A stretch of 64,000 nucleotides of DNA from Escherichia coli (GTDB taxonomy: Bacteria; Pseudomonadota; Gammaproteobacteria; Enterobacterales; Enterobacteriaceae). Positions 3,530 to 47,235 of the stretch are shown here, piece after piece (position 1 is the stretch's first letter; each line of letters begins with the position of its first letter). The position numbers and the translations under genes are program-made. The stretch lies in NCBI RefSeq assembly GCF_030384885.1, contig NZ_CP128613.1; one strand, 5' to 3'. The notes under the pieces were generated by a model, which did not search any database, was not told the origin of the DNA, and saw only the letters and a program-made list of their open reading frames with translations.

Positions 3530-3830
3530 GACTCCTTGCTCATCGCATGAAGACTCCGAGAGTGAACCCCGTTAGAAAGGGTCACACGCATGCCCCAATA
3601 CAAAATTATTTGCTCGCCTCTATCGCTGCCTTTTCCTCAAAAGTGGAAAAGACAATGATAAAAAAGTTACAAATATGTTAATGAATAAACCAAATTGATC
3701 CCGTAATTATATTACGCCGCAAAATCCTTACAATAAACAGGTTTTTATTGAGCAAATTTGCATTTTTCGACAGTGATCAATTTATAGCGAAATTGTCACG
3801 ACCTCACCAATTTGATCTACGACAATTTAT
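3530..3830 (-). promoter_or_regulatory. cydAB upstream control region (long AT-rich leader/promoters; ArcA/FNR-regulated in K-12)
   Basis: Position immediately 5-prime of cydA; AT-rich with several TTGAT/ATCAA-like half-sites; individual sites not resolved by eye. Confidence 0.4.
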
Positions 3831-4330
3831 CGTGTTTTGCAGATTTTTTTCAAGAATTAAAAATTGATTTATATCAAAACCAGTCAAATATGTTAATTAT
3901 GTATAAACCATAGACCATTGGTAATTTTATTGTTAATTTATTGTGAAATATTTATGTAACACAATTATTACAATAAAAAGACATAGATAAAAAACCAGTG
4001 TTTTATTTAACAGAATCGCCTTATCAACTTTTTATAATACCAATTGATTAGAGTAGCCAATTTGTTGCTATTTTACATAACATATTTTTATCAAAGTTAA
4101 TTGATTGTTGCCTTTATGAGCATCGCCGTAAGACCGCCATGTTATTGTTTCATTTGTAATAATCACCAATAAGTATCGATGAGAGAGATATCGCTTAACA
4201 GAGGCGACTGTGTCTGCATGAACACAGGCAACTTTCGCCTGATAAACGAAAAATGAGCGATTTTTGCAAGTTAGTTTTTCTATAGCCGGGTACGCTGAGC
4301 GCCTCGCTTGATTACAATGAGGTTGCTGCC

Positions 4331-5275
4331 ATGGGTCTTGATAATATAGGTTCTGTTGTCAATCGCTTCTCTGGTTGGCCATCAAATGATCCTCTAAAAA
4401 CAGATAACGAATCAATGACATCACCCGTGACTGTGCAGGTAATAAAGTTGATTGCCGCCATCCTTGACCCACATCGGATAGTCGTTGGTATCGATACACT
4501 TTATACAACGCAGCGCAAAACATTTACCTCAGAGGGTCAACAACTCATTGAATCAGCATTGAAAACACTTAATGTGATGAATTTAAATAGCCTGGAAACA
4601 GATCGCGATGAGGAGGGTAACTATCTGGCTTTTGGATATAACGTTGACACTCCTGACAGAATAACCGTTTCTGCTTATAATGAAAAAAAACCTTTCTGTT
4701 ATGGCCAATGTCTTTTAATACAGGATGAAGAACCAGATTTATTTAACCTGGTAAAAATTAAAACCTTTGAAGCCAGGCATAATTATGTTTCTAAATTGAT
4801 GAGCGATCCGGAATTTATGTTTAAATTCAGTTATAGCGCCCAACAAAATAGATTAGAACCTCATCTTCTGGTTCCCACTTATTTCCCTCTGAAAACAAAC
4901 CAACCGGTTACGCTAGAGGATGTACTGATACTTTATCGTTTCTTTAAAATGAATGGCGATTTTAATATATTAACATCAGATGAATACATGAGTATCATGA
5001 CACCTCTGATGAAGTGTGAGCGTAGTGTCCACGACCATAACAGGTATGTGACGGGCAAAGATGCTCTTCTTCTGGACAATCCTCCGTCTGGTAACCAGAT
5101 ATATTTCCATATTTCCCCTGACGAATCAGCAACACTTGTCCTTTATTTTTCAGACAATAACCTTGAATCCTTCGTCTTTGAAAATGATATTCCGAGCCAG
5201 TATCGACATTTCAAAATGTTTACCAATTTAGCACTAGTTATTGATCAGTTAACCGACGCCAATCAAATACTTTAA
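4331..5275 (+). CDS. Hypothetical protein (314 aa), no recognisable family; low-GC accessory gene
   Basis: ORF preceded by a GAGG Shine-Dalgarno about 9 nt upstream; AT-rich codon usage unlike the flanking core genes; no transmembrane segments or known motifs seen. Confidence 0.55.
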   Translation: MGLDNIGSVVNRFSGWPSNDPLKTDNESMTSPVTVQVIKLIAAILDPHRIVVGIDTLYTTQRKTFTSEGQQLIESALKTLNVMNLNSLETDRDEEGNYLAFGYNVDTPDRITVSAYNEKKPFCYGQCLLIQDEEPDLFNLVKIKTFEARHNYVSKLMSDPEFMFKFSYSAQQNRLEPHLLVPTYFPLKTNQPVTLEDVLILYRFFKMNGDFNILTSDEYMSIMTPLMKCERSVHDHNRYVTGKDALLLDNPPSGNQIYFHISPDESATLVLYFSDNNLESFVFENDIPSQYRHFKMFTNLALVIDQLTDANQIL

Positions 5276-6320: not shown

Positions 6321-6770
6321 ATGAAGAAAGCAACACTTGTGATTGGCGTTATTGGCGCGGACTGCCATGCAGTAGGCAATAAAGTTCTGGACCGCGTTTT
6401 TAGCAACCATGACTTCAGAGTCATTAATCTGGGCGTAATGGTCAGCCAGGACGAATATATTGATGCTGCCATTGAAACTGGCGCTGACGCAATTGTCGTC
6501 TCCTCTATCTATGGGCATGGCGATATCGACTGTCTGGGCATGCGCGAACGCTGCATTGAGCGTGGCTTGGGGGACATCCTGCTCTATGTGGGCGGCAACC
6601 TGCTGGTCGGAAAACATGACTTCGCTGACGTGGAAACCAAGTTCAAAGAGATGGGATTTGATCGCGTCTTTTCCCCAAGTCATGACTTAGAAGATGTTTG
6701 TCAGCTGATGGCCCACGATATCAACCAACGTCATGACGTTGATACTCGCATTCTTGAAGAGGCAATCTGA
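6321..6770 (+). CDS. Glutamate mutase sigma (S) subunit, B12-binding (GlmS/MutS-type methylaspartate mutase small subunit)
   Basis: Translation [24 protein letters not shown]... contains the DxHxxG cobalamin-binding motif; AAGGA Shine-Dalgarno before the ATG at 6321 (the track ORF starts further upstream); followed by L and E subunits in the clostridial S-L-E order. Confidence 0.85.
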
Positions 6771-8158
6771 TGCAAATCGTCTCTGTCGATATTGGATCGA
6801 CGTGGACCAAAGCAGCCCTCTTCACCCGGGAGGGGGACGCGTTAACGTTGGTTAACCACGTTCTGACCCCAACCACCATCCATCATCTGGCAGAGGGATT
6901 TTTCTCCAGCCTTAACCAGGTGTTAAACGTAGATAATGCCCTCCCCCTGTTAAACCGTGGTGAGGTTGCATTGAAGTATTCCTCCTCTGCCAAAGGTGGG
7001 CTGGCGGTTGCCGCAATGGGATTGGTGCCTTCTATCACCCTGGAAACCGCGAAAGTAACCGCTCACTCTGCGGGTGCTAAAATTGCGCAATATTACGCCT
7101 ACAAGCTGAACCGCCGTGATATCCAGGCACTGGAAGAAACGCAGCCCGATATTCTCTTGTTCACCGGCGGCACCGACGGCGGAGAAGAAAGCTACGGACT
7201 GAATAACGCCCGTGTGCTGGCAGAATCCAAACTCGACTGCGCCATTATTTATGCCGGAAACCGGGATATTCAGGACAAGGTGCAGGAGATCCTCGGGCAT
7301 AAAGACCTGACCATCGTCGACAACGTTCTGCCCGATCTTGACCATCCGAACCCTTTAGCTGCACGCCAGGCTATCTGCGACATATTCCTTAAACGCATCG
7401 TTAAAGGGAAAGGGCTGGATGTCATTGTTGATAAAACAGGCGAAGAACCAATGCCGACACCATGGACGGTCTTTGAACTGGTGAAGGCAATCAGTAACGT
7501 CGATCACAGCTGGAAAGAGTTCATGCTGATCGACATGGGCGGCGCAACCACCGATGTCTATTCCGCCTGTGCCAACACGCTCTCGCCCGACACTGTTTTA
7601 CATGGCGTACCGGAACCCTTCGTAAAACGGACGGTGGAAGGCGATCTGGGAATGCGCGTCTCGGCAATGGTGGTTGGTGAAAGTGCGAAAGAGTTAGTCA
7701 GTGTGAATTTTGCTCAGCAACCCGCACAGTTGGACGCTTTTTATCATTACCTCCGTCATCTAGTCGCTCATCCCGACTACTTACCCGCGAATGCAGATGA
7801 AAAATATTTCGATACCGTCCTGGCCGGACTGTGTGTGGGTTATGCCACCGAAAGACATGCGGGCACCAAAAAAGAGGTCTGCACCTGCGTCGGCAATGTC
7901 GATTTACAGATGGGACGTGACCTGACAACCGTGCGTAAAGTCGTGGGTTCCGGCGGATGGCTCTCGCGTGCCAGTCAGTTCGATATGCATCACTGGTTGA
8001 AATACCGCGAGTTAAACGACGACGGTAAACGCATTCTCTTACCGACCGAATTTGAATATTACCGCGATTCCTGGGGGCTATTACCACTGCTGGCAAACGT
8101 CGCCAGAGTCGATCCGCTGGCCGCCGCGCGCACCAGTATTCAATGCTTAACCCTATAA
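6770..8158 (+). CDS. Glutamate mutase-associated MutL/GlmL protein (putative mutase chaperone/reactivase)
   Basis: 462-aa ORF whose start overlaps the S-subunit stop (TGATG); sits between the S and E subunits as in clostridial glm/mut operons. Confidence 0.75.
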   Translation: MQIVSVDIGSTWTKAALFTREGDALTLVNHVLTPTTIHHLAEGFFSSLNQVLNVDNALPLLNRGEVALKYSSSAKGGLAVAAMGLVPSITLETAKVTAHSAGAKIAQYYAYKLNRRDIQALEETQPDILLFTGGTDGGEESYGLNNARVLAESKLDCAIIYAGNRDIQDKVQEILGHKDLTIVDNVLPDLDHPNPLAARQAICDIFLKRIVKGKGLDVIVDKTGEEPMPTPWTVFELVKAISNVDHSWKEFMLIDMGGATTDVYSACANTLSPDTVLHGVPEPFVKRTVEGDLGMRVSAMVVGESAKELVSVNFAQQPAQLDAFYHYLRHLVAHPDYLPANADEKYFDTVLAGLCVGYATERHAGTKKEVCTCVGNVDLQMGRDLTTVRKVVGSGGWLSRASQFDMHHWLKYRELNDDGKRILLPTEFEYYRDSWGLLPLLANVARVDPLAAARTSIQCLTL

Positions 8159-8176
8159 CAATTAAGGCTGCAATCA

Positions 8177-9622
8177 ATGGAACTTCGAAATAAGAAATTA
8201 ACCCATGACGAATTCATGACCGAGCGGCAACAGGTATTGAAAACCTGGGAAACCGGCAAGGATGTTGAAAACTTTGAAGATGGCGTTAAATACCAACAAA
8301 CCATTCCTGAGCATAAACGCTTCTCTCTTGCCCTGCTGAAAGCAGACAAGGAAGGTAAAACCCTTAGCCAACCGCGCGCAGGCGTGGCGCTGATGGACGA
8401 ACACATCGAACTACTGAAAACACTACAAGAAGAGTGCGATCTGCTGCCGAGCACTATCGATGCATATACCCGTCTGAATCGGTACGAAGAAGCGGCTGTA
8501 GGGATTAAAAAATCCATCGAAGCCGGAACCTCTAAACTGAACGGTTTACCGGTAGTTAACCACGGCGTCGCAGCTTGCCGTCGCCTCACCGAAACTCTGC
8601 AAAAACCGCTACAGATTCGCCACGGCACGCCAGATGCGCGTTTGCTGGCTGAAATCTCGATGGCCAGCGGCTTTACCAGTTATGAAGGCGGCGGCATTTC
8701 CTACAATATTCCGTATGCCAAGCGCGTAACGCTGGAAAAATCGATCCGCGACTGGCAGTACTGCGATCGTTTAATGGGGATGTATGAAGAACACGGGATC
8801 CGCATCAACCGCGAACCGTTTGGCCCACTAACGGGTACGCTAATCCCGCCGTTTATCTCGCACTCTATCGCAATAATCGAAGGCTTGCTGGCACTGGAAC
8901 AGGGTGTGAAGTCTATCACCGTTGGTTATGGTCAGGTCGGCAGCCTGACGCAGGATGTCGCGGCGATCCAGTCTCTGCGTAAACTTGCACACGAATACTT
9001 TCAGAACTATGGCTATACCGACTATGAATTAAGTACCGTGTTTCACCAGTGGATGGGCGGCTTTCCGGAAGACGAATCGAAAGCGTTCGCCATTATCTCC
9101 TGGGGTGCAGCCGTCGCGGGGATGTCTGGTGCCACCAAAGTCATCACCAAAAGTCCGCACGAAGCCTGGGGCATCCCGACTGCTGCTGCCAACATTCAGG
9201 GGCTAAAAGCCTCCCGCCAGATGCTCAACATGGTCAACGAGCAGAAATTCCCGCCGTGCCCGGCGGTTGAACTAGAAATTGAACTGATTAAGAGCGAGGT
9301 TCGCGCGGTACTGAACAAAGTGTTCGAACTGGGTAATGGTGATATTGCGCGCGGTACGGTGCTGGCATTTGAAGCGGGCGTACTGGATGTGCCGTTTGCG
9401 CCAGCCGCCTGCAACGCAGGCAAAATTCTTCCGGTCCGTGACAACACTGGCGCGATTCGCGTACTGGAGGCCGGAGCCGTTCCATTGCCAAAAGATATTC
9501 TCGACCTCCACCACGATTACGTTGCTGAACGCGCGCGCTTTGAAGGACGCCAACCGACATTCCAGATGGTTGTAGATGACATCAATGCTGTATCCCACAG
9601 TAAATTAATAGGAAGACCATAA
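8177..9622 (+). CDS. Glutamate mutase epsilon (E) subunit (methylaspartate mutase large subunit)
   Basis: 481-aa ORF of typical E-subunit length, positioned between the L gene and the methylaspartate ammonia-lyase gene. Confidence 0.85.
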   Translation: MELRNKKLTHDEFMTERQQVLKTWETGKDVENFEDGVKYQQTIPEHKRFSLALLKADKEGKTLSQPRAGVALMDEHIELLKTLQEECDLLPSTIDAYTRLNRYEEAAVGIKKSIEAGTSKLNGLPVVNHGVAACRRLTETLQKPLQIRHGTPDARLLAEISMASGFTSYEGGGISYNIPYAKRVTLEKSIRDWQYCDRLMGMYEEHGIRINREPFGPLTGTLIPPFISHSIAIIEGLLALEQGVKSITVGYGQVGSLTQDVAAIQSLRKLAHEYFQNYGYTDYELSTVFHQWMGGFPEDESKAFAIISWGAAVAGMSGATKVITKSPHEAWGIPTAAANIQGLKASRQMLNMVNEQKFPPCPAVELEIELIKSEVRAVLNKVFELGNGDIARGTVLAFEAGVLDVPFAPAACNAGKILPVRDNTGAIRVLEAGAVPLPKDILDLHHDYVAERARFEGRQPTFQMVVDDINAVSHSKLIGRP

Positions 9623-10863
9623 TGAAAATAAAACAGGCCCTTTTCACCGCTGGCTACTCTTCATTCTATTTCGATGACCAGCAGGCGATAAAAAACGGAG
9701 CGGGTCACGACGGCTTTTTTTATACCGGAGAGCCGGTAACACAGGGGTTTAACGCCGTACGTCAGGCCGGGGAGTGCGTTTCGGTTCAGTTGATTCTGGA
9801 AAACGGTGCGGTCGCCGTAGGCGACTGTGCTGCCGTACAGTATTCCGGGGCAGGCGGTCGCGATCCACTGTTCCTCGCAGAGCACTTTATTCCGTTCCTC
9901 AACGACCATATCAAGCCATTACTGGTAGGCCGCGATGTGGATGCTTTCCTGCCGAATGCCCGTTTCTTCGACAAATTGCGTATTGACGGCAACTTGCTGC
10001 ATACCGCCGTACGTTACGGATTATCACAGGCGCTGCTTGATGCTACCGCGCTGGCAACCGGCCGTCTAAAAACTGAAGTGGTCTGTGATGAATGGCAGTT
10101 GCCACGCGTAGCGGAATCCATTCCATTATTTGGTCAGAGCGGCGACGATCGATATATCGCCGTCGATAAGATGATCCTTAAGGGCATCGACGTGCTGCCC
10201 CATGCGCTGATTAATAACGTCGAAGAGAAGCTGGGCTTTAAAGGTGAAAAACTGCGCGAATATGTCCGCTGGTTGTCGGATCGCATTCTGAGCAAGCGCA
10301 CCAGCGCACGCTACTACCCAACCCTGCACATCGATGTATACGGCACTATCGGTCTGATCTTCGATATGGATCCGCTTCGCTGTGCGCAATACATCGCCAG
10401 CCTGGAAAAAGAAGCGCAAGGCCTGCCGCTCTACATTGAAGGGCCGGTCGATGCCGGTAACAAGCCCGATCAAATTCGCCTGCTGACCGCGATTACCAAA
10501 GAGCTGACGCGCCTCGGTTCCGGCGTGAAAATTGTGGCCGATGAATGGTGTAACACCTACCAGGATATTGTTGATTTCACTGATGCCGCCAGTTGCCACA
10601 TGGTGCAAATCAAAACCCCGGATCTGGGCAGTATTCACAACATCGTCGATGCAGTTCTTTATTGCAACAGCCACAGCATGGAAGCGTACCAGGGCGGCAC
10701 CTGCAATGAAACTGATGTCAGTGCCCGCACCTGTGTCCACGTCGCCCTTGCTGCTCGCCCCATGCGTATGCTGGTAAAACCAGGGATGGGCTTTGACGAA
10801 GGCCTCGATATCGTCTTCAACGAAATGAATCGTACTATCGCGCTGTTGCAGGCTAAGGATTAA
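9622..10863 (+). CDS. 3-Methylaspartate ammonia-lyase (enolase superfamily)
   Basis: 413-aa ORF, start overlapping the E-subunit stop (TAATG); sequence MKIKQALFTAGYSSFYFDDQQAI... and length match MAL; operon context with glutamate mutase. Confidence 0.85.
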   Translation: MKIKQALFTAGYSSFYFDDQQAIKNGAGHDGFFYTGEPVTQGFNAVRQAGECVSVQLILENGAVAVGDCAAVQYSGAGGRDPLFLAEHFIPFLNDHIKPLLVGRDVDAFLPNARFFDKLRIDGNLLHTAVRYGLSQALLDATALATGRLKTEVVCDEWQLPRVAESIPLFGQSGDDRYIAVDKMILKGIDVLPHALINNVEEKLGFKGEKLREYVRWLSDRILSKRTSARYYPTLHIDVYGTIGLIFDMDPLRCAQYIASLEKEAQGLPLYIEGPVDAGNKPDQIRLLTAITKELTRLGSGVKIVADEWCNTYQDIVDFTDAASCHMVQIKTPDLGSIHNIVDAVLYCNSHSMEAYQGGTCNETDVSARTCVHVALAARPMRMLVKPGMGFDEGLDIVFNEMNRTIALLQAKD

Positions 10864-10866
10864 CAA

Positions 10867-12237
10867 ATGGCTCGTTCTTTTAAAGTCTTAGCGCCAACGG
10901 CAATCCTCGGGTATGGATTCCCGGAAGAGAGCTTCCGCAAAGCGATGGCAGAATCGCCCGATCTGATCGCCGTTGATGCAGGATCTTCCGATCCAGGTCC
11001 CCACTACCTCGGGGCAGGCAAACCGTTTACCGATCGCGCAGGAGTCAAGCGCGATCTGCGCTATATGATCACCGCAGGCGTGCAAAATAATATACCGGTG
11101 GTGATCGGAACGGCCGGCGGTTCTGGTGCCGCTCCACACCTGGAGTGGTGCCGAGAAATAATTCATGAGATTGCCCGGGAAGAGCGCCTCTCGTTCTCGA
11201 TGGCGCTGATCCCGGCAGACGTTGACAAAGCCATCGTCCACCAGGCGCTGGATAACGGCAAAATCACGGCGCTGGATTTTGTCCCGCCGTTAACCCACGA
11301 CGCGATTGACGAAAGTACGTATATCGTCGCGCAAATGGGCATCGAACCCTTCCAGCAGGCGCTGAAAGAAGGCGCGCAAGTGGTGCTGGGCGGGCGCGCT
11401 TACGACCCGGCCTGCTTTGCTGCGCTACCGATCATGCAAGGCTTTGATGAAGGTCTGGCGCTGCATTGTGGGAAAATCCTTGAATGCGCGGCAATCGCCG
11501 CAACGCCCGGCTCAGGCTCTGACTGTGCGATGGGCATCATTGATGACAACGGCTTTACGCTGAAGACATTTAATCCGAAGCGTAAATTTACCGAAACGTC
11601 AGCGGCTGCACACACACTGTATGAGAAATCCGATCCCTACTTCCTGCCTGGACCTGGCGGCGTGTTGAACCTGAAAGGCTGCACATTTAAAGCGGTCAAT
11701 GACGGCGAAGTGTACGTCAGCGGTTCTAAGCATGAAGAAACGCCGTATGCCCTGAAACTGGAAGGTGCGCGACGGGTGGGCTTCCGCTGTCTGACCATCG
11801 CAGGAACGCGCGACCCGATCATGATCGCCGGGATCGATAAAATCATCGATGAAGTCAAAACCAGCGTTTCGCGTAACCTGTCGCTCGACGATGACAGCAT
11901 TCGCATCAATTTCCACCTGTACGGCAAAAACGGGGTGATGGGCGACCATGAACCGATGCAAACTGCCGGGCATGAGCTGGGGATTGTCCTTGATGTAGTT
12001 GCACCGACCCAGGATATTGCCAATAGCGTTTGCTCGCTAGTGCGCTCTACCATGCTGCACTACGGCTATGAAAACCGCATCGCTACCGCAGGCAACCTGG
12101 CGTTCCCGTTCTCCCCTTCTGATATCCAGGGCGGGCCGGTATACGAATTTTCCATATATCACCTGATTGAAGCCAACGACGCTCTGCGTTTTGATTTCCA
12201 TATTGAACAGGTGACGCCAGAAGGAGTTCAGGCATGA
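10867..12237 (+). CDS. DUF1446/AtuA-like family protein of unknown function
   Basis: 456-aa ORF 4 nt after MAL in the same operon; family assignment is from memory of AtuA-like proteins and is not verified. Confidence 0.55.
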   Translation: MARSFKVLAPTAILGYGFPEESFRKAMAESPDLIAVDAGSSDPGPHYLGAGKPFTDRAGVKRDLRYMITAGVQNNIPVVIGTAGGSGAAPHLEWCREIIHEIAREERLSFSMALIPADVDKAIVHQALDNGKITALDFVPPLTHDAIDESTYIVAQMGIEPFQQALKEGAQVVLGGRAYDPACFAALPIMQGFDEGLALHCGKILECAAIAATPGSGSDCAMGIIDDNGFTLKTFNPKRKFTETSAAAHTLYEKSDPYFLPGPGGVLNLKGCTFKAVNDGEVYVSGSKHEETPYALKLEGARRVGFRCLTIAGTRDPIMIAGIDKIIDEVKTSVSRNLSLDDDSIRINFHLYGKNGVMGDHEPMQTAGHELGIVLDVVAPTQDIANSVCSLVRSTMLHYGYENRIATAGNLAFPFSPSDIQGGPVYEFSIYHLIEANDALRFDFHIEQVTPEGVQA

Positions 12238-12551
12238 AACAGTCAATTGTCTCACTGGCGCAAGTCATTCGTTCGAAAAATGCCGGACCTTACGAACTGG
12301 TTTTAGATATTTTATTTAAAACGAAAGAAAACTATGAGCGAGTAAAATCATCAGGGCAATTAACCCCAGAACTGATTGCGCGCTTATATCATGTTGAACC
12401 TGACTTTATTCATCGTATTGTCTGGTTTGATCCTTCTAACGCAGTAAAAATTGTCATGCCACGAGATATTATCTCCGGGAATGTAGGTGACAATGATGTC
12501 TATGGCGCACAGCAACATGCACCTTTATTAAATATGAGTTTCGATTTGTAA
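12234..12551 (+). CDS. Small conserved partner protein (105 aa), translationally coupled to the DUF1446-like gene
   Basis: ATGA start/stop overlap with the upstream gene; soluble; DUF1446 proteins commonly pair with a small DUF4387-type protein (recalled, not verified). Confidence 0.5.
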   Translation: MKQSIVSLAQVIRSKNAGPYELVLDILFKTKENYERVKSSGQLTPELIARLYHVEPDFIHRIVWFDPSNAVKIVMPRDIISGNVGDNDVYGAQQHAPLLNMSFDL

Positions 12552-12711
12552 AAATCCGAACACTTTTAGCCAACTGACATCCCGTCACTTATTGCAGCTC
12601 AACACTTCAGCTATTTGTAAGGTTGTTATAGCAGGTAGATGCCTGAATCTCTATTCAGGCATCCACTTCTCCTGATTCTGATTTATCGCCGTGCACCTGA
12701 TGGAGGAAAAA

Positions 12712-13992
12712 ATGAAGAAAATAAGTTTAACCATGATGATTCTTTTGGCGCTGGTACTTGGAATGATTATCGGCGTAGTGCTCAATAACACTGCTTCACC
12801 GGAAACAGCAAAACTCTATGCGCAAGAAATATCGATATTCACGACGATTTTCTTACGACTAATAAAAATGATTATCGCTCCGTTAGTGGTCTCTACCCTG
12901 GTGGTAGGTATTGCTAAAATGGGCGATGCCAAAGCCCTTGGTCGTATTTTTTCTAAAACACTCTTTTTATTTATTTGCGCCTCATTGCTGTCAATTGCCT
13001 TAGGCTTGATAACGGTAAATTTCTTCATGCCAGGCACAGGAATTAATTTTGTTGCACACGGTGCCGAAACCACCGGAGTGGTCGCGTCAGAACCCTTTAC
13101 ACTAAAAGTATTTATTTCGCATGCTTTCCCCACCAGCATTGTCGATGCCATGGCGCACAATGAAATTTTGCAAATCGTGGTGTTCTCAATTTTCCTCGGC
13201 TGTAGCCTGACGGCGATTGGTGAGAAAGGCAGCGCCATCGTTCACGCCTTAGATTCGCTGGCACATGCCATGTTAAAGCTCACTGGCTACGTCATGCTCT
13301 TCGCTCCCCTGACCGTATTCGCCGCTATTTCAGCATTGATTGCTGAACGAGGACTGGCAGTTATGGTGAGCGCCGGGATCTTTATGGGTGAATTTTATTT
13401 CACCATGTTATTACTTTGGGTGCTGCTTATCGGTCTGGCCATCGTTTATGTCGGCCCCTGCATCAGACGCCTGACCCGCGCCCTTTCAGAACCCGCCCTG
13501 CTGGCATTTACCACATCCAGTTCTGAAGCTGCTTTTCCGGGAACGCTTGAAAAACTGGAGCAATTTGGCGTTTCCCCCAAAATTGCCAGCTTTGTCTTAC
13601 CCATTGGCTACTCATTTAATCTCGTTGGATCAATGGCCTACTGCTCCTTCGCCACAGTTTTCATCGCCCAGGCCTGCAATATCCATTTATCCATCGGTGA
13701 GCAAATCACCATGCTGTTGATCCTGATGTTGACCTCGAAAGGAATGGCTGGCGTACCACGCGCCTCAATGGTGGTTATCGCCGCCACGCTCAACCAGTTC
13801 AATATTCCGGAAGCGGGGCTGATCTTGCTGATGGGCGTTGATCCGTTCCTTGATATGGGGCGTTCCGCGACAAACGTCATGAGCAACGCAATGGGCGCTG
13901 CGATGGTGAGTCGGTGGGAAGGCGAACATTTCGGCGAGGGTTGTCGGGGTAAAGCATTAAAACCCAACGAATCGAACGTTGCTCTGCCCTGA
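12712..13992 (+). CDS. Dicarboxylate/amino acid:cation symporter (DAACS family, GltP/DctA-like); probable glutamate or methylaspartate/mesaconate transporter
   Basis: About 426-aa polytopic membrane protein; GGAGG Shine-Dalgarno 6 nt before the ATG at 12712; resemblance to GltP/DctA-type symporters. Confidence 0.8.
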   Translation: MKKISLTMMILLALVLGMIIGVVLNNTASPETAKLYAQEISIFTTIFLRLIKMIIAPLVVSTLVVGIAKMGDAKALGRIFSKTLFLFICASLLSIALGLITVNFFMPGTGINFVAHGAETTGVVASEPFTLKVFISHAFPTSIVDAMAHNEILQIVVFSIFLGCSLTAIGEKGSAIVHALDSLAHAMLKLTGYVMLFAPLTVFAAISALIAERGLAVMVSAGIFMGEFYFTMLLLWVLLIGLAIVYVGPCIRRLTRALSEPALLAFTTSSSEAAFPGTLEKLEQFGVSPKIASFVLPIGYSFNLVGSMAYCSFATVFIAQACNIHLSIGEQITMLLILMLTSKGMAGVPRASMVVIAATLNQFNIPEAGLILLMGVDPFLDMGRSATNVMSNAMGAAMVSRWEGEHFGEGCRGKALKPNESNVALP

Positions 13993-14099
13993 GGGGGATC
14001 TTAAGCAATCAGAAGCCAATGACTACGCATTTTTATAAGCCGGATCATGAAGTTAGACGGCAATTAAGTAACACTAACGTTTAAGGTGAAAAGTGAAAT

Positions 14100-15752
14100 A
14101 TGTCCAAACCATTTATCTGGCAAGAACCGTTTCTACAAAATAAAGACGGTACAGAATATACATTAATTAGCGATCAACATATTACAGTAACGGAATTAGA
14201 CGGCGAAGAAGTGATAAAAATCGCTCCTGAAGCATTAACGCTGCTTGCCCGGCAGGCATTTTATGAAGCCTCTTTTTTCTTACGTTCCGCTCATTTGCAA
14301 CAGGTCGCCAGCATTCTTAACGATCCGCAGGCCAGTAGTAATGATAAATACGTTGCGTTGCAGTTATTACGTAATGCTGAAGTCTCAGCAAAAGGGGTAT
14401 TACCCAACTGTCAGGATACCGGCACCGCAACTATTGTTGCCAGTAAAGGGCAACAGATATGGACGGGAGGTAACGACGCTGAAGCCTTAAGCAAAGGCAT
14501 TTACAGTACTTTCCAGGAAAATAATCTGCGCTTTTCACAAAATGCGCCGCTGGATATGTATACCGAAGTCAATACGCAAACCAATCTCCCGGCGCAGATT
14601 GATATCAGCGCTGTCGCTGGTAATGAGTACCATTTTCTCTGTGTTAATAAAGGGGGCGGCTCCGCCAATAAAGCCGCGCTTTATCAGGAAACCAAATCCT
14701 TATTGCAACCAGAAAAACTGACCGCGTTTTTAATCGACAAAATGAAATCGTTGGGCACGGCCGCCTGCCCGCCCTACCACATCGCCTTTGTCGTCGGAGG
14801 GCTTTCAGCCGATCAAACCTTAAAAGTTGCCAAGCTGGCCTCAACGAAATATTACGACAATTTGCCCACCAGCGGAAATGAGCAAGGACAAGCATTCCGT
14901 GATATTGAGCTGGAAAAAGTATTGCTCGAGGCCAGTCAGCAATTTGGTATTGGTGCGCAATTTGGGGGTAAATATTTCGCTCATGATATTCGCGTCATTC
15001 GTCTGCCGCGTCACGGTGGCTCCTGCCCGATAGCTATGGCGCTCTCCTGTTCTGCCGATCGCAATATCAAAGCCAAAATTAACAAGCACGGTATCTGGCT
15101 GGAAAAACTCGAACACAATCCGGGGCAATATATTCCAGCCTCATTGCGGGAAGAAAATCACGCGCAACATGTACACCTGGATCTAAACCGTCCGTTGCGT
15201 GACGTGATGCAGGATCTCGCCAGATTACCGGTAGGTACCCGCGTGTCGTTAAGTGGTCCCATCGTAGTGGCGCGCGATATCGCCCACGCAAAAATAAAAG
15301 CGCGGCTGGATAGCGGCGAATCGATGCCGGATTACCTGAAGCATCATATTGTCTATTACGCTGGCCCGGCGAAAACACCGGAGAACATGGCCTGCGGTTC
15401 ACTGGGTCCAACCACGGGCGGTCGAATGGACGGTTATGTCGAAACCTTCCAGGCGGCTGGCGGCAGTCTGGTAATGTTATCGAAAGGTAACCGCAGCCAG
15501 CAGGTCACCGATGCCTGTCACAAACATGGCGGCTTCAATCTGGGAAGTATTGGCGGTGCAGCTGCGTTACTGGCGCAAGAATATGTCAAAAGTCTGCGTT
15601 GCCTGGAATACCCGGAGCTGGGTATGGAAGCGGTGTGGATGATGGAAGTGGAAAATCTGCCCGTATTCATCCTGGTCGATGATAAAGGCAATAATTTCTT
15701 TAGTCAGTTTGAGCAGCAACACCGCTGCGCCAGTTGCCCTGCGGGACATTAA
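14100..15752 (+). CDS. fumD: Class I (Fe-S) fumarate hydratase family enzyme; probable mesaconase (mesaconate hydratase) of the methylaspartate pathway
   Basis: 550-aa ORF with class I fumarase character and C-terminal Cys-rich region; genomic association with glutamate mutase and MAL; a mesaconase/fumarase FumD has been described in E. coli O157:H7 (recalled). Confidence 0.75.
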
Positions 15753-15761
15753 GGAAAATGA

Positions 15762-16364
15762 ATGGAAGCGCGAATTTCAACTGAACGGCATGTGCAGCGC
15801 CAGCAGAAATTGAAGGAACAGGTCGATACGCGCGTCGCGGCGGCGATAGAGAAAAAAGGGATCTTGATTGTTTTCACCGGCAACGGCAAAGGGAAATCCA
15901 CTGCCGCGTTTGGTACTGTAACGCGCGCGGTGGGCCATGGCAAAACGGTGGGGGTTGCGCAGTACATCAAGGGGCAATGGGACAACGGCGAATACAACCT
16001 TCTCCAGCCGCTGGGGGTTGAGTTTCATATTATGGGAACCGGTTTTACCTGGGAGACTCAGAACCGGCAAGCGGATATCGACGCGGCGAAAGAGGTCTGG
16101 TCGGAAAGCAAACGGATGCTGGCTGACAAGCGTTACGACTTAGTGGTGCTTGATGAGCTGACCTATATGCTGGCTTACCATTATCTGGACACCGAAGAAG
16201 TGATCACTTCTCTGCAAAACCGCCCGGCACAACAAAGTGTCATTGTCACCGGACGCAGTTGCCACAGTCAGATATTAAAAATGGCGGATACGGTCAGCGA
16301 AATCCGCCCCGTCAAACATGCTTTTGATAACGGCATTCAGGCGCAGCCGGGTATCGACTGGTAA
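15762..16364 (+). CDS. Cob(I)alamin adenosyltransferase (BtuR/CobA family), island-encoded copy
   Basis: 200-aa ORF with P-loop GNGKGKST and overall resemblance to BtuR; functionally coherent with a B12-dependent mutase. Confidence 0.8.
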   Translation: MEARISTERHVQRQQKLKEQVDTRVAAAIEKKGILIVFTGNGKGKSTAAFGTVTRAVGHGKTVGVAQYIKGQWDNGEYNLLQPLGVEFHIMGTGFTWETQNRQADIDAAKEVWSESKRMLADKRYDLVVLDELTYMLAYHYLDTEEVITSLQNRPAQQSVIVTGRSCHSQILKMADTVSEIRPVKHAFDNGIQAQPGIDW

Positions 16365-25726: not shown

Positions 25727-25802
25727 TAGGCCGGATAAGGCATTCACGCCGCATCCGGCCCTGGTTGCCTGATGCGACGCTTGCGCGTCTTATCAGGCCT
25801 GG
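25727..25802. repeat. REP/BIME palindromic repeat unit in the sdhB-sucA intergenic region
   Basis: Sequence gtaggccggataaggc...gcatccggcc and gcctgatgcgacgcttgcgcgtcttatcaggcc are typical REP palindromes. Confidence 0.8.
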
Positions 25803-36298: not shown

Positions 36299-36448
36299 TT
36301 TCCCATGATGCCCTTTGCAACCGAAAGGGCATCTCTTTCAGAAAATTGCTGATTTTCCCCTTTTCCTTGATTGCTGTTATTTTTTCCTGGCCCGGCTTTC
36401 TTTATGCTGTATCGATACACCAAAGAGAAAATAATGAGGAAGCGAAGG

Positions 36449-37495
36449 ATGCCAGTTTTGCAGTGGGGAATGTTATGTGTGCTTTCACTTCTCCTTTCTA
36501 TTGGCTTCCTCGCGGTACATCTTCCGGCGGCACTATTACTTGGGCCAATGATCGCCGGAATCATCTTTAGTATGCGCGGAATTACTCTGCAACTTCCCCG
36601 ATCCGCTTTTCTCGCCGCCCAAGCCATTCTTGGCTGCATGATTGCGCAAAACCTCACTGGTTCGATTCTCACCACGCTAGCCGTTAACTGGCCGATTGTG
36701 CTAGCCATTTTACTCGTGACGTTACTTTCCAGCGCCATCGTGGGTTGGTTATTGGTGCGCTATAGCTCACTGCCTGGAAATACCGGTGCCTGGGGTTCTT
36801 CTCCTGGCGGCGCGGCGGCAATGGTCGCTATGGCGCAAGATTACGGCGCAGATATTCGCCTGGTGGCATTTATGCAATATCTGCGAGTGCTGTTCGTCGC
36901 GGGGGCCGCTGTTCTGGTCACCCGCATGATGCTGGGCGATAACGCTGAAGCGGTTAACCAGCAGATCGTCTGGTTCCCGCCAGTGAGCATTAATCTCCTG
37001 CTTACGATTTTGCTCGCGGTCGTTGCCGGTACGGCGGGATGCTTGCTACGTCTTCCTTCCGGCACGATGCTCATCCCGATGCTGGCGGGCGCAGTGCTCC
37101 AGTCTGGTCAGCTCATCACCATCGAACTACCAGAATGGCTGCTGGCGATGGCGTATATGGCAATTGGCTGGCGGATTGGTCTTGGTTTCGATAAGCAAAT
37201 CTTACTGCGGGCATTGCGCCCGCTGCCACAAATCTTGCTGTCGATTTTTGCTCTGCTGGCTATTTGTGCAGGTATGGCGTGGGGACTGACCCGGTTTATG
37301 CATATTGATTTTATGACTGCCTACCTCGCCACCAGTCCCGGCGGGCTTGATACCGTGGCGGTCATCGCCGCAGGGAGCAATGCCGATATGGCGCTTATTA
37401 TGGCGATGCAAACCCTACGCCTGTTCAGTATTTTGCTGACGGGGCCAGCCATTGCGCGGTTTATTTCAACCTATGCGCCGAAGCGGTCGGCCTAG
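36449..37495 (+). CDS. abrB: AbrB/YbgN family membrane protein (putative regulator of aidB expression)
   Basis: [37 protein letters not shown]... polytopic membrane protein; start chosen at MPVLQ. Confidence 0.85.
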
Positions 37496-38283
37496 TGCTG
37501 GCAGCCTGGACACCAGTAAAACGGGCGCGAGGACAACGTGGTTTTCTCAATGATGCTGCCACAACGTTCGCACGGTTCGCCATCACGATGAAAAACCTTA
37601 AAGCGAAACAGCGCCCCATGATGTTTATTCTCATCCACCTGCCCCCGCGTAGCGTAAGAAAGTCGAGGAATCTCCAGTAACGCGTGTGCGAGTGCATCCA
37701 GTTGCGCCGCATTGAGATCTTTCGCTTTATGATTGCCGGTTAACCCCACCTGCCAGAGGATCTCCACCCGCAAATAATTGCCAAGCCCAGCCAGAAACGC
37801 CTGATCGAGTAGTAATCCAGCAAACTGACGGTTACGAAAGCGCGGCGACAATAACCGTTCTTTCGCCACCTCCGGCGTCAGTTTCGGATCCAGCACATCG
37901 GGGCCAACGCGTTGTAAAAACGGATGCGTGGTCAGTTGTTCCGGGGTCAACATCTCAATATCCGAGGCGCTATAAAGCAGAATGGTTTTGTCAGCCGTTT
38001 GCAGTTTTACCCGCAATACTCGCGTGGTCTGCGGCTCTTCGCCGGTATCAACCACGCGCCAGACGCCGTAAAGCTGATTATGGCTGTAGAGCGTTAACCC
38101 GTTGGAAAAATGAGTTAACAACGCCTTACCTCGCGTTTCCACATGGGTAACGTGTTGACCGATAAGTTGTGATTGATAAGGTTTTAACTGCGGGAAGGCA
38201 AACCAGACATCAGTTAGAGGTTTGCCTTTGATCGCCGCCTCCAGGTTATCCGCTGCGCGGCGGATTTCCGGGCCTTCAGGCAT
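37492..38283 (-). CDS. nei: Endonuclease VIII (DNA glycosylase/AP lyase)
   Basis: [23 protein letters not shown]... with C-terminal zinc finger [26 protein letters not shown]; true start 76 codons inside the track ORF. Confidence 0.95.
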
Positions 38284-38317
38284 GGTGATATCCTTTTTTT
38301 GTTCTTTTTTTGCGGGA

Positions 38318-39052
38318 TTATGCTGCGACAACAATCCCCTTTTTGGTAAATGTAGAGCGTAGTCGGCGGGCGAACGCCAGTGCGTGCTCGCCGTCGCCAT
38401 GCAGACAGACAGTCTGCACCGTGACCGTCGCCCATTCGCCGGTGATACTTTTGACTCTGCCGTGTTGCACCATCTCCAGCGTCTGCGCCAGCGCCTGTTC
38501 TTCGTTTTCAATCAACGCGCCAGGCTGACTTCGCGGTACCAGTGAGCCGTCAGCCTGATATCCGCGATCGGCAAATACTTCCTCGCGCGTTGTCAGGCCA
38601 TATTGCTTGCCTGCACGAATCAGCTCGCTTCCCGCCAGCCCGACGAGAATCAATGCCGGATCGCAAGCGTAAACTGCTCTGGCAATGGCGTCTGCCAGTT
38701 GTGCGTCTTTCGCCGCCTGGTTGTATAACATGCCGTGCGGTTTGACATGACGCATCACGCCGCCTTGCGCGCGAGCAATAGCGGCCAGCGCACCAATTTG
38801 ATACAGCGTTTGGGCGTAAACGGTTTCCGGCGGCAATTGCATGGCGCTACGGCCAAAATGTTCCCTGTCCGGAAAGCTCGGGTGAGCGCCAATGGCGACA
38901 CCATTTTGTATGGCATCACGCACGCAAGCCTGCATGGTTTGTGCATCGCCTGCATGAAATCCACAGGCAATATTGGCTGAGGAAACCAGCGTTAATAGCT
39001 CTGCGTCGCTGACACAGCCTTCGCCCAGATCGGCGTTCAGGTCAATTTTCAT
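38318..39052 (-). CDS. pxpA: 5-Oxoprolinase subunit A (LamB/YcsF family)
   Basis: 244-aa [39 protein letters not shown]... Confidence 0.93.
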
Positions 39053-39974
39053 TGTGCAGCCGCCACGCTAATTGTTCGAAATAACGTTGCTGATCTTGCC
39101 GTGCTTTCAGTGCCTCTTCCAGTGAACACTGGACAAAATGAATCGGCTGACCGAGCGGAATTTGCGCCAGATGGTACATATCAGCCTCAATGATACAGGC
39201 AATACGCGGATAACCACCGGTGGTCTGTGCGTCGTTCATCAATACAATCGGCTGCCCGTTATGCGGCACCTGCACCACGCCCGGCAACAAACCATGAGAT
39301 AACAGTTCGCGATCGGTGGTGCGTTTTAAGATTTGCCCCTGTAGGCGATAGCCCATCCGGTTACTTTGCGGGCTAAGCTGCCAGGGCGAACGCCAGAATG
39401 CATCCTGCGAGGCGCGATCGAACTCATGATATTCCGGCCCCGGCAAGGCGCGAATGCGGTTGCCCCACAGCAGCTGTTTAACGCCCTGCGCTTCCATAAA
39501 ATCACGCTTCGATTTACCCATCGGGAGTCGGTCACCATCCTTCAGTAAACGGCCTTCCAGCCCACCAATCCCCACTTTGAGATCGGTACTGCATGACCCC
39601 ATTACCGGCGGAACATCAATACCACCCGCGACCGCCAGATAACTGCGCATCCCGTGCTGCGGGCGTTTAAGCGTTAAACGCTGGCCTGCTTTCATCGGCA
39701 ATCGCCAGCCAGTCCAGACGGCATTATCATCCAGCCGCGCTTCGCAACCTGCCCCCGTCAGGGCAAACCAACCATCAGTTTCGAACTCTACCGTTAACTG
39801 ACCGAGCGTTATCTCCAGCGCGGGGGCATTGGCGTCATTACCCACCAGCAGGTTAGCAATGCGTAACGCAGGCATATCCAGTGCGCCGCAGTGGCTGATA
39901 CCCGACTGGCGAAAACCGTGACGACCGCCATCCTGCACAGTAGTATACATGCCCGCACGAATAATCTTCAGCAT
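39042..39974 (-). CDS. pxpC: 5-Oxoprolinase subunit C (allophanate hydrolase subunit 2-like)
   Basis: 310-aa ORF overlapping pxpA and pxpB in the ybgIJKL operon order. Confidence 0.9.
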
Positions 39975-40624
39975 ACTCCCTCCTTCTGCGGTACAAAGCG
40001 CACGCTGTCTCCCGGACGTAATAAGATGGGTTCGTCACGCGCCGGATCAAACAGGCTGAGTGAGGTATGACCAATCAACTGCCAGCCGCCCGGCGTTGCC
40101 AGCGGATAAACACCGGTCTGCGGCCCGCCGATCCCGACAGAACCTGCCGGAACGAGCAAGCGCGGTTCAGCGCGCCGTGGCGTGTGTAGTTGTTCCGGCA
40201 AACTCCCGAGATACGGGAAGCCCGGTTGAAAACCTAAAAACCAGACCACGTATTCCACAGAGGAGTGCAATTCAACAACCTGTTTTTCGCTCAATCCACA
40301 ATGCGCCGCGACCACCGCCAAATCCGGTCCGCCTGCGCCACCGTAAACCACCGGAATTTCAATAAAACGAGACTCCGGCTCCAGCGCCTCACTCTCCTCC
40401 CACCAGCGTTGCAAACGCTCTATGGCATCCAGCGCCAGCGACTCAGGATTACGTAAAATCACCGTGATATTGTTCATGCCGGGAATGGCTTCAACCACAT
40501 TCGGCATATCCACCAGACGCTGCGCCAGTCGCCGGATACGTTTCTGGCTAGCCAGCGTCACCGGCGGTTCCAGCTCCAGCACTACCGCCGTTTCACCTAT
40601 CAGATAACAACGCGCTCGTTGCAC
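39968..40624 (-). CDS. pxpB: 5-Oxoprolinase subunit B (allophanate hydrolase subunit 1-like)
   Basis: 218-aa ORF; operon position. Confidence 0.9.
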
Positions 40625-40646
40625 TTTCGATCCCTCTGATTATTCG

Positions 40647-41390
40647 TTATGCAGGATTAGGAATATCAATAAAGGTCACATCAAGATCGGTATTTTCATT
40701 CAGCCACTCGCTCAATGCGCGAATACCACCGCGTTCAGTGGCATGGTGACCCGCAGCATAAAAATGCAATCCCTGCTCGCGGGCTGAATGAATGGTCTGT
40801 TCAGAAACTTCGCCAGTAATAAAAGCATCCACGCCAAAACGCGCGGCGCTATCGATAAAACTCTGCCCGCCGCCCGTGCACCAGGCGACGCGCTGAACCA
40901 CCTCAGGTCCGGTATCGCCACACCATAACGGCTTACGTCCCAGACGCGCTTCAATCCAGGAAGCCAGCTCCAGTCCCGGCACAGGCATGGTCAGTTCGCC
41001 CCACGGCACCAACGGCTCAATTTCGCCCATGACCGTGATCCCCAGTATCGCCGCCAGCTGTGCGTTATTGCCCAGCTCTGGATGTGCGTCAAGCGGCAAA
41101 TGCCAGCCATACAGGTTGATATCATTCACCAGCAACGTTTTTAAACGGTTACGCTTCATGCCGCGAATTACCGGGGATTCGCCTTTCCAGAAGTAGCCAT
41201 GATGCACAATGACCGCATCCGCGCCCAGACGCACCGCTTCATCGAGCAGCGCCTGGCTGGCGGTGACACCGGTAACAATTTTTTGCACCGTCTCTTTGCC
41301 TTCTACCTGCAAACCATTCGGCGCGTAATCACTTATGGCCGCGCTGTTCAGTTTCTCGTTAATCAGTTGTTCCAGTTCGGTGTTTTTCAT
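40647..41390 (-). CDS. ybgI: GTP cyclohydrolase 1 type 2 / NIF3-family metal-binding protein
   Basis: 247-aa ORF MKNTELEQLINEKLNSAAISDYAPNGLQVEG... Confidence 0.92.
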   Translation of the reverse strand: MKNTELEQLINEKLNSAAISDYAPNGLQVEGKETVQKIVTGVTASQALLDEAVRLGADAVIVHHGYFWKGESPVIRGMKRNRLKTLLVNDINLYGWHLPLDAHPELGNNAQLAAILGITVMGEIEPLVPWGELTMPVPGLELASWIEARLGRKPLWCGDTGPEVVQRVAWCTGGGQSFIDSAARFGVDAFITGEVSEQTIHSAREQGLHFYAAGHHATERGGIRALSEWLNENTDLDVTFIDIPNPA

Positions 41391-45412: not shown

Positions 45413-45748
45413 TCAGTAACTGCAAAGGAGAAAAATAGTCACTCCGATGAGATTACTCAATACCAGCAATAGCTCCCCATCATATAAATAGCCCACCATA
45501 AGATTAATCTCTATCATCTCAATTGCTTTTTGTACAGCAAGCGCCGGTAAGATATTCTGACGAAGCATTTTGGCAATATCATTTTCATCCAGTTCATCGG
45601 GTGTTTTATCTAATAAAGAATTATACCAGTTTATTAAACCACTTTTGAAAGCGAACGAATCATATTGCAGGTGATAAATCTGTTTTAGGGTTTCTTTATT
45701 TTTCAATTTATAGTGCCTTTGTTTGCTATAATTTTTCTGAAATAACAT
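45413..45748 (-). CDS. Hypothetical small protein (111 aa); possible immunity-type partner of the upstream gene
   Basis: AT-rich ORF whose start overlaps the stop of the upstream 155/186-aa ORF by 1 nt (translational coupling). Confidence 0.45.
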   Translation of the reverse strand: MLFQKNYSKQRHYKLKNKETLKQIYHLQYDSFAFKSGLINWYNSLLDKTPDELDENDIAKMLRQNILPALAVQKAIEMIEINLMVGYLYDGELLLVLSNLIGVTIFLLCSY

Positions 45749-46215
45749 CAGCGAGTTTGCTCAGGTGCAGGGATGACCGAAATTGTCATGTATTTTTTCA
45801 GTCTGGCTTCTCGTTTCACACCTTTCGGATCTGAACCAAAAGGAAGCGTCAAGCATGGTGAGTCAACGGTTTGGATTGTCCAGAGAGAATCACCAATGAA
45901 TCTGAAATTGATGCTATCCGCTGTAACGGATAATCCCTCAAAACTTCCCGTCGCATACTCATTACCCAAACGTACGGTCTCTTTAACTCCATCGTTAACA
46001 TCGATAAGGACAATTGTCAGTGATTCCTCAAAAATAACGTCATCCGTCAGAAAAAGGATATAACGCTGGTCATTAACCTGAATTGCCGCTTCCAGTATTT
46101 GCCCTGGTACAATAATACCTGTGTTATTGCCATTAAGCACAACGTCAGACTGAGCCTGAGATAAATCAGTCGCTTTGTGAACCTTGACCAACGATATCGA
46201 ATTAACCTGTTGCAT
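45748..46215 (-). CDS. Hypothetical protein (about 155 aa from the ATG at 46215; the track ORF extends to a GTG at 46308)
   Basis: ORF from the track; start ambiguous among GTG 46308, ATG 46245 and ATG 46215, the last lying 2 nt after the stop of the small glycine-zipper ORF. Confidence 0.45.
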   Translation of the reverse strand: MQQVNSISLVKVHKATDLSQAQSDVVLNGNNTGIIVPGQILEAAIQVNDQRYILFLTDDVIFEESLTIVLIDVNDGVKETVRLGNEYATGSFEGLSVTADSINFRFIGDSLWTIQTVDSPCLTLPFGSDPKGVKREARLKKYMTISVIPAPEQTR

Positions 46216-46217
46216 AA

Positions 46218-46358
46218 TCAATTCCACAAGCGCCCCATTTCCCATGCGGCAAGTGCACCGCCGACAAAGCCGCCAATAAGTACGCAAACAGGTGCTCCTG
46301 GACCACACATCAATCCGGTCAACGCACCGCCTGCGACAGCACCGGCAATAATATTCAT
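46218..46358 (-). CDS. Small glycine-zipper hydrophobic peptide (46 aa), candidate small membrane protein or toxin-like peptide
   Basis: Hand translation gives MNIIAGAVAGGALTGLMCGPGAPVCVLIGGFVGGALAAWEMGRLWN with repeated GxxxG spacing; below the track length cutoff; no strong Shine-Dalgarno seen. Confidence 0.35.
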   Translation of the reverse strand: MNIIAGAVAGGALTGLMCGPGAPVCVLIGGFVGGALAAWEMGRLWN

Positions 46359-46541
46359 CCGGGTACGACTGCCAGTGGTTTTAACAGATTTACGCTCACC
46401 GTTACGTATCCTGCCACCACTCAGGTTGCAGACGCGGCAGTCACAGCCTTGACGGTGTTGAAACTAAAGTTCAGGTGATAGTCTGATGTTCATAGTTTGA
46501 GCATTATCCCCTGACAGAATCAAATCAAGCAGTGTCAATGA

Positions 46542-46799
46542 TCACGTGTATATATCATTTAAAGCATTATCAAGCCAATCTTCCATGTTTTTAATTTTAG
46601 CCCGCGCATATAAATCATTCATAACATCCTCATAACTCTGTCCATCATTGACCATACAATTAGCTGTATGAGGCAGAACATGTATAAAATCAGACAATAT
46701 AAAACAAGCCTTTGAATTTCCAGAGTTAGCTGCAATTCTGATATCAATCAATCCTCTGGCAATCAATTTAAGAATAACATCTTGCATTTTAATTTCCAT
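46542..46799 (-). CDS. Hypothetical small protein (85 aa)
   Basis: AT-rich ORF in the same orientation as its neighbours; no recognisable motif. Confidence 0.4.
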   Translation of the reverse strand: MEIKMQDVILKLIARGLIDIRIAANSGNSKACFILSDFIHVLPHTANCMVNDGQSYEDVMNDLYARAKIKNMEDWLDNALNDIYT

Positions 46800-46881
46800 A
46801 TCATCCAGTTAAATTTCAGTAGTAAATCGTCTATCAAAAAAAGATGAAATTAACATTCATAAATTTATTACAATATGAAAA

Positions 46882-47235
46882 TCAAAAATATACATCATCA
46901 GCTTCTACCGAAAACTCCATGGCTCCTAAGGCACCTAAATCAATACTAAATATAGTATCACTTTCCTTAGCACTCCCAACATAGATAAAATAGCCTAAAT
47001 CTCCGTCTTGACCTATCAAAAAATAGTCAGGTTCCACTTGTTGAATATCATATGTTTCATTTCTTTCAATAAGATCAGAATAGTTATATAAATATAATGT
47101 TTCGTGCTTCTTATTAGTTATTTCATAGGTCTCACTATCTTTAATTTCTTCTATCAAAAAACGTTTATACACTGGAGGAAACTTGATTGACATGTCAAAT
47201 TCAATTTTATTTATATATTCTATAATTTTATTCAT
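46882..47235 (-). CDS. SUKH/SMI1-KNR4-like putative immunity protein (117 aa)
   Basis: Motif LIGQDGDLGYFIYV resembles the conserved G-x-D-G-x-G-x-Y core of SUKH immunity proteins; short, acidic, AT-rich; sits where K-12 has rhs-associated genes. Confidence 0.5.
   Translation of the reverse strand: MNKIIEYINKIEFDMSIKFPPVYKRFLIEEIKDSETYEITNKKHETLYLYNYSDLIERNETYDIQQVEPDYFLIGQDGDLGYFIYVGSAKESDTIFSIDLGALGAMEFSVEADDVYF

Follow-up and report, generated by a model that had tools for sequence, protein, structure and literature searches.

Overlaps between adjacent prokaryotic genes have a modal length of 4 bp, and convergent overlaps of this length take the form YTAR (Lillo & Krakauer 2007, PMC2174442). 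In these pairs the coding sequences lie on opposite strands, the two stop codons share the central TA, and both proteins are left unaltered. The same survey counts 58 convergent overlaps in E. coli and reports that 20% of the E. coli genes in such overlaps keep a predicted intrinsic terminator.

Convergent genes with overlapping transcripts have also been described as excludons, which are defined by mutual exclusion of the two partners through interference or RNase III. ExcludonFinder uses overlapping transcript boundaries as its criterion and lists 165 convergent excludons that recur in 50% or more of 58 MG1655 RNA-seq samples, nei-abrB among them (PMC12288877). For 146 of the 165, the terminators predicted by TransTermHP overlap, and the convergent excludons were, according to the authors themselves, not validated by p19 dsRNA capture. 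Further points of comparison are the Rho termination regions mapped in K-12 (Adams et al. 2021, PMC7815308) and the putative bidirectional intrinsic terminators that we describe below between nei and gltA of Klebsiella, Enterobacter, Atlantibacter, Pantoea and others, which occupy the same site as the junction studied here, the 3' end of nei, and would perform the same task.

Here we analyse the abrB-nei junction in a 64,000-nucleotide (64-kb) stretch of E. coli DNA, referred to as the window. The overlap of the two genes is real, ordinary and already known, since it has been in the standard K-12 annotation for decades and the pair appears in a published list (PMC12288877). We consider it likely that the simple 4-bp tail-to-tail overlap of abrB and nei arose incidentally, when a gene was inserted and the spacer was lost, that it is not a regulatory device, and that the transcripts of the pair are terminated by Rho. 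What is new are small additions: an evolutionary reconstruction, a link to a published Rho termination region, and a caveat on automatic excludon calls.

The abrB and nei genes

Annotation and profile matches identify abrB and nei as two genuine protein-coding genes on opposite strands. The abrB coding sequence (36449-37495, plus strand) encodes a protein of 348 aa that matches PF05145 over residues 29-339 (330.8 bits), is also matched by TIGR03082, and ends in ...TYAPKRSA*. According to these profiles the sequence is that of a polytopic membrane protein with an internal duplication. PGAP gives the product name 'AbrB family transcriptional regulator', which looks like a legacy label. From old genetics, AbrB is presumably linked to the regulation of aidB, and we treat this link as an assumption.

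The nei coding sequence (37492-38283, minus strand) encodes endonuclease VIII, a protein of 263 aa. Nei is covered in full (1-263/263, 501.8 bits) by the NCBIfam endonuclease VIII equivalog NF007763 and ends in ...CPGCQH*, with the final zinc-finger cysteine three codons ahead of the stop. The gene is the last of a same-strand cluster, ybgI-pxpB-pxpC-pxpA-nei (37492-41390, minus strand), whose operon status we take from the title of Gifford & Wallace (2000), as cited in PMC1779786.

Homologues support both gene ends. Nei is 263 aa long across Enterobacteriaceae, and in nearly all of its best 120 relatives, and the C-terminal length of AbrB is equal in Salmonella, where the two genes do not overlap. 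These observations bear on the explanation that the overlap is an annotation artefact in which one of the stops is not the true gene end. We found no point that supports it; the full span of the equivalog model by Nei, the constant lengths in relatives, and the agreement of several independent annotations (2013C-4282, C3026, MG1655, Z570, GmF067 and THO-015) make it hardly conceivable.

Geometry of the junction

The two genes end on a common tetramer, CTAG, at 37492-37495 (C at 37492, G at 37495; not assigned to a strand), in the context gcggtcggc CTAG tgctggc. The sequence around this tetramer in the window is gcggtcggcCTAGtgctggc. The abrB stop is the TAG at 37493-37495 on the plus strand, where the open reading frame ends at 37495, and the nei stop is the TAG at 37494-37492 on the minus strand, where the open reading frame ends at 37492. 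The two stops thus share the TA core of a YTAR tetramer. In agreement with the first-pass annotation, which had placed both TAG stops on a CTAG palindrome with zero intergenic space, the sequence, the open reading frames, their translations and the RefSeq annotation all give this arrangement.

E. coli 2013C-4282 (NZ_CP027579.1) matches the window at 100% identity, and RefSeq/PGAP annotates the identical 4-bp abrB/nei overlap there. RefSeq also gives a 4-bp overlap in K-12 C3026, O157:H7 Z570, GmF067 and THO-015, and in MG1655 (NC_000913.3) nei at 745935-746726 (plus strand) and abrB at 746723-747769 (minus strand) overlap by the same 4 bp. The arrangement had been expected to be conserved in K-12, as C3026 and MG1655 now confirm, and the RefSeq annotations of the six strains give no different stop for abrB or nei. 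We read the tetramer base by base in seven E. coli strains and four other Escherichia species; it is CTAG in 7/7 of the E. coli sequences compared. All but two of the 5,426 complete E. coli genomes carry the abrB-nei region (5,424 genomes).

The segment that contains the two genes (36300-38600) is fairly diverse in E. coli, with at least 99% identity to the window in one of the 5,424 genomes and 90-99% in the rest. Pairwise identity of abrB-nei among five E. coli strains is 94-96%, and the proteins are 98-99% identical to those of K-12.

If the tetramer were lost, abrB would be extended by 7 codons and nei by 6. The first in-frame backup stop for abrB is a TAA at 37517-37519 (plus strand), 7 codons past its TAG, and that for nei is a TAG at 37471-37473 (minus strand), 6 codons past its own. 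An Rfam search gives no match at the abrB-nei locus.

With all defining features present, abrB-nei belongs to the 4-nt YTAR convergent overlaps, from which it shows no difference in kind, and it is one of about 58 convergent overlaps in E. coli. The geometry of the pair is not above chance expectation and belongs to a common class; among the five convergent pairs in the 64-kb window, one overlaps, and this is abrB-nei. The tetramer CTAG is scarce: base composition predicts 250 sites in the 64 kb and a Markov model 45, but we count 15. This rarity is no sign of a special junction, because a 4-bp overlap between two stops can only be YTAR. The depletion of this tetramer as such makes CTAG the least common of the four YTAR forms in E. 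coli.

Two further CTAG sites are located in abrB, at 36677 and 36701, 24 bp apart. Together with the junction, three sites are found in about 0.8 kb, against otherwise one per 4 kb.

A P2-like prophage, with integrase, cox-family and DUF2732 genes, is found inside the last ~100 bp of abrB in E. coli OkiPb01694 (locus L087, 1-2994). The breakpoint corresponds to about position 37393 of the window, and the 108-bp remnant of abrB still overlaps nei on CTAG. The location of this prophage in the end of abrB points to a phage attachment site at the abrB 3' end. Interruption of abrB by a prophage is rare, with about 3 of the 5,424 genomes lacking full coverage of the region.

Transcription beyond the two stops

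A consensus scan reveals no terminator-like site, defined as a hairpin with a T-run, within ~100 nt downstream of either stop. The nearest matches to the consensus are weak and are found at 37381-37393 on the plus strand (5 pairs), upstream of the abrB stop, and at 37618-37599 on the minus strand, inside nei. The 60-130 nt that follow each stop show no gain in folding energy over shuffled sequences (z = 0.17, 0.49, -1.23 and 0.09), and the value of -1.23 belongs to a weak hairpin just past the nei stop (GCCGA..UCGGC, -21.4 kcal/mol for 61 nt). By both scan and folding, a G+C-rich hairpin with an A-tract and a T-tract is absent from the abrB-nei stops.

These results bear on the explanation that abrB and nei are each served by an intrinsic terminator concealed within the partner's coding sequence. 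There is precedent for such an arrangement in the roughly 20% of E. coli genes in convergent overlaps that keep a predicted terminator (PMC2174442) and in the TransTermHP calls for 146 of the 165 excludons (PMC12288877), and the weak hairpin just after the nei stop would be compatible with it. However, the scan found no hairpin plus T-run in the ~100 nt that follow each stop, and the RNA there folds no more stably than its shuffled versions. In PMC7815308 the Term-seq list has no 3' end at this site, and nei-strand termination is sensitive to bicyclomycin. Hidden intrinsic terminators therefore appear very improbable to us.

The first-pass annotation had argued that the absence of intergenic space leaves no room for independent terminators. 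It is correct that none is detectable near the junction. The claim about room does not follow, because terminators fit in a partner coding sequence, as the predicted cases in PMC2174442 illustrate, and because Rho needs no spacer.

On the nei strand, published K-12 data are informative. The curated Term-seq 3' ends of Adams et al. (2021, PMC7815308) include none at MG1655 746,5xx-747,0xx. The same study lists, in its supplementary file 2, a Rho termination region at MG1655 747036 (plus strand), antisense to abrB. In untreated cells, the 800-nt flanks of this position have 68 reads on the upstream side and 30 on the downstream side; with bicyclomycin the counts are 75 and 95. The Rho score is 2.87 (p = 7.6e-5). 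This call depends on a single experiment in which reads were few and positions were resolved to within hundreds of nucleotides, and it was made in K-12, which is 96% identical there to the studied strain. Position 747036 lies 310 nt past the nei stop and corresponds to about 37182 of the window on the minus strand.

The equivalent of 747036 falls in the most C-rich, G-poor 80-nt stretch downstream of nei, in the studied strain and MG1655 alike. This tract extends from +281 to +360 past the nei stop (37132-37211, minus strand), and its C/G ratio of 2.15 places it in the top 1.3% of 80-nt stretches. C-rich, G-poor untranslated RNA is thus found at the Rho termination region on the nei strand. 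We conclude from the published K-12 data that nei-strand transcription enters abrB in the antisense direction and is curtailed by Rho. The antisense reads at abrB could come from an unmapped internal promoter instead of nei read-through; a scan for sigma-70-like sites on the nei strand, antisense in abrB, predicted none.

On the abrB strand, the tables of PMC7815308 have no entry for a Rho region or a 3' end inside nei. Published SMRT-Cappable-seq data tables name neither abrB nor nei. From the composition of the RNA we infer Rho termination of abrB transcripts within nei. A candidate rut region for these transcripts is predicted at +41 to +180 past the abrB stop (37536-37675, plus strand), and the C/G ratio of the tract reaches its maximum of 1.93 at +81 to +160, in the top 2.6%. 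Of the mutual read-through proposed in the first-pass annotation, the nei-strand part is borne out by the published Rho region.

The locus resembles the Rho termination regions of PMC7815308 in that bicyclomycin-sensitive termination on the nei strand occurs antisense to a gene, in a stretch rich in C and poor in G that lies over 50 nt beyond a stop codon. It differs from them in that the nei strand is mapped at low resolution and coverage, and in that termination on the abrB strand is a prediction.

These elements suggest how transcription would end at the junction. Because there is no intergenic terminator, each RNA polymerase would run into the partner gene on its antisense strand. As the RNA is untranslated beyond each stop, Rho would load on C-rich, G-poor RNA and would terminate transcription within a few hundred nucleotides of each stop. 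It is most likely that the abrB and nei transcripts are both stopped by Rho inside the neighbouring gene.

The nei 3' end across Enterobacterales

We scanned one genome per species for relatives of Nei and analysed the best 80 Enterobacterales loci. In 49 of these 80 loci nei converges directly on gltA, in genera that include Klebsiella, Enterobacter, Kluyvera, Lelliottia, Leclercia, Atlantibacter, Pantoea, Erwinia, Serratia and Hafnia. The spacer between the two genes measures 27-386 bp in the 49 loci, and 32 of the 49 carry a hairpin with a T-run, often flanked by an A-tract. Judged by its sequence, this element has the features of a typical bidirectional terminator. The spacer of Klebsiella is an example and reads TAA-AAAAACGCGC-tctcag-GCGCGTTTTTT. 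In contrast, abrB-nei of E. coli has neither spacer nor hairpin at the nei end, and the bidirectional terminator element is therefore absent.

Among the best 80 loci, Escherichia, Salmonella and some Citrobacter are the only groups in which abrB adjoins nei. Where the two genes overlap by 4 bp, the tetramer is CTAG in E. coli, Escherichia sp. MOD1-EC7003, E. whittamii and strain SCPM-O-B-8794, CTAA in E. albertii and two Citrobacter-like genomes, TTAG in C. youngae CCUG 30791, and TTAA in Citrobacter sp. MGH106. All four YTAR forms are thus found at the abrB-nei junction among relatives. In Salmonella (S. enterica arizonae) the junction reads TAA-tcagcg-TTA, with a 6-bp spacer and unchanged C-terminal lengths of both proteins, so that the difference from E. 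coli is a 10-bp indel between the stops. The abrB-nei spacer measures 75 bp in C. amalonaticus, and two Citrobacter genomes have an extra gene between nei and abrB.

In five Citrobacter genomes an AraC-type regulator, and not abrB, converges on nei across a 2-bp spacer (TAG-at-CTA). The five loci are L008 (Citrobacter werkmanii, 3795-4643), L009, L010, L015 and L019. The last residue of Nei varies with the abutting cargo and is H, R, K or T. On the simplest reading of these sequences, the nei-gltA interval would be a variable spot in which varying cargo lies next to the nei stop with hardly any spacer.

Within Escherichia the arrangement is stable. The 1,835-bp abrB-nei segment has zero indels across nine Escherichia sequences. 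In this segment E. coli strains share 94-96% pairwise identity, and identity to E. albertii and SCPM-O-B-8794 is 82-86%, so that the overlap survives 15-18% nucleotide divergence within the genus. Selection for the overlap could be an alternative account of this indel-free persistence.

Under the reading that we prefer, gene insertion followed by spacer loss, the locus would have the following history. In the ancestral state nei, as the last gene of ybgI-pxpBCA-nei, would have faced gltA across a short spacer with a bidirectional hairpin terminator. In the Escherichia/Salmonella/Citrobacter lineage abrB would have come between nei and gltA, and the ancestral terminator would have been lost. 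The spacer would then have shrunk, as suggested by the 75 bp of C. amalonaticus, the 6 bp of Salmonella, and the -4 bp of Escherichia and some Citrobacter. The YTAR overlap would represent the tightest packing that leaves both AbrB and Nei intact. The overlap persists while the tetramer drifts between CTAG, CTAA, TTAG and TTAA, because the outer bases of YTAR are third codon positions at which transitions keep both stops.

If this reconstruction is correct, abrB-nei provides a worked example in which a lineage-specific insertion removes a bidirectional terminator, the spacer collapses to YTAR, and Rho takes over.

Antisense overlap of the two transcripts

An antisense overlap of the nei and abrB mRNAs at their 3' ends would be unavoidable in this arrangement, and its effect on expression is probably small. 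Antisense interference between the two genes, raised in the first-pass annotation, is no more than a possibility, which none of the present results supports. Carried further, the pair would be a functional convergent excludon, in which read-through from ybgI-pxpBCA-nei, from abrB, or from both represses the partner, by interference or RNase III, and leads to mutually exclusive expression.

The pair resembles the convergent excludons of PMC12288877 in that the nei and abrB transcripts must overlap and in that it is present in the E. coli list. Moreover, nei-strand reads cross abrB in the antisense direction without bicyclomycin (30 vs 68 per 800 nt, PMC7815308), and the overlap is retained throughout Escherichia and in some Citrobacter. 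The listing, however, adds little: two expressed genes with overlapping coding sequences meet the criterion, so that it follows nearly automatically from the coding overlap. The convergent excludons as a group failed validation by p19 dsRNA capture (PMC12288877), and the antisense RNA at abrB is limited by Rho (PMC7815308). The comparison across species also argues against this explanation, with Salmonella and C. amalonaticus retaining both genes with a spacer and most genera having no abrB at the nei locus.

The synonymous sites of the junction are in agreement with this. In nine Escherichia sequences, third-position variability is 0.72 and 0.70 in the two 90-nt bins at the junction, vs gene means of 0.68 for abrB and 0.53 for nei. 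These sites are under no extra constraint, and therefore no embedded conserved element is visible. In the literature consulted we found no report of opposing nei/abrB expression. We consider a functional convergent excludon unlikely, and nei-abrB differs from the excludons in that their defining mutual exclusion, by interference or RNase III, is only putative for this pair. Excludon calls for pairs with overlapping coding sequences should be treated with caution, as they are automatic and silent on regulation.

A dip in third-position variability to 0.50-0.57, vs the abrB mean of 0.68, is observed at 37079-37348 in the nine Escherichia sequences. It overlaps the C-rich tract and the reported Rho region, which are on the opposite strand, and is weak, not robust, and uncorrected for multiple windows.

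A more specific proposal is that read-through from the nei operon, checked by Rho ~300 nt into abrB, would act as a tunable antisense brake on abrB, a functional excludon that arose from the displaced nei-gltA terminator. The proposal treats ybgI-pxpBCA-nei as a DNA-damage-related operon. If it were true, raised transcription of the operon or weakened Rho would lower AbrB, coupling the repair of oxidative damage to the targets of AbrB. We consider such a brake quite improbable.

Other features of the window

Apart from the junction, the window contains a cluster for the methylaspartate route of glutamate breakdown at 6321-16364, located between the cyd and suc genes. It comprises genes for methylaspartate mutase S, L and E, methylaspartate ammonia-lyase, a class I fumarate hydratase and a dicarboxylate symporter, together with cobO, and looks like an accessory island. 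The sole Rfam match in the window is naRNA4 (RF02564, 79.4 bits) at 25729-25799 on the plus strand, in the sucA-sdhB intergenic region. Between ybgA and ybfA, at 45413-47235 on the minus strand, we observe small genes that include a contact-dependent growth inhibition immunity protein and an IS630 transposase fragment, and this segment looks like an orphan toxin-immunity remnant.
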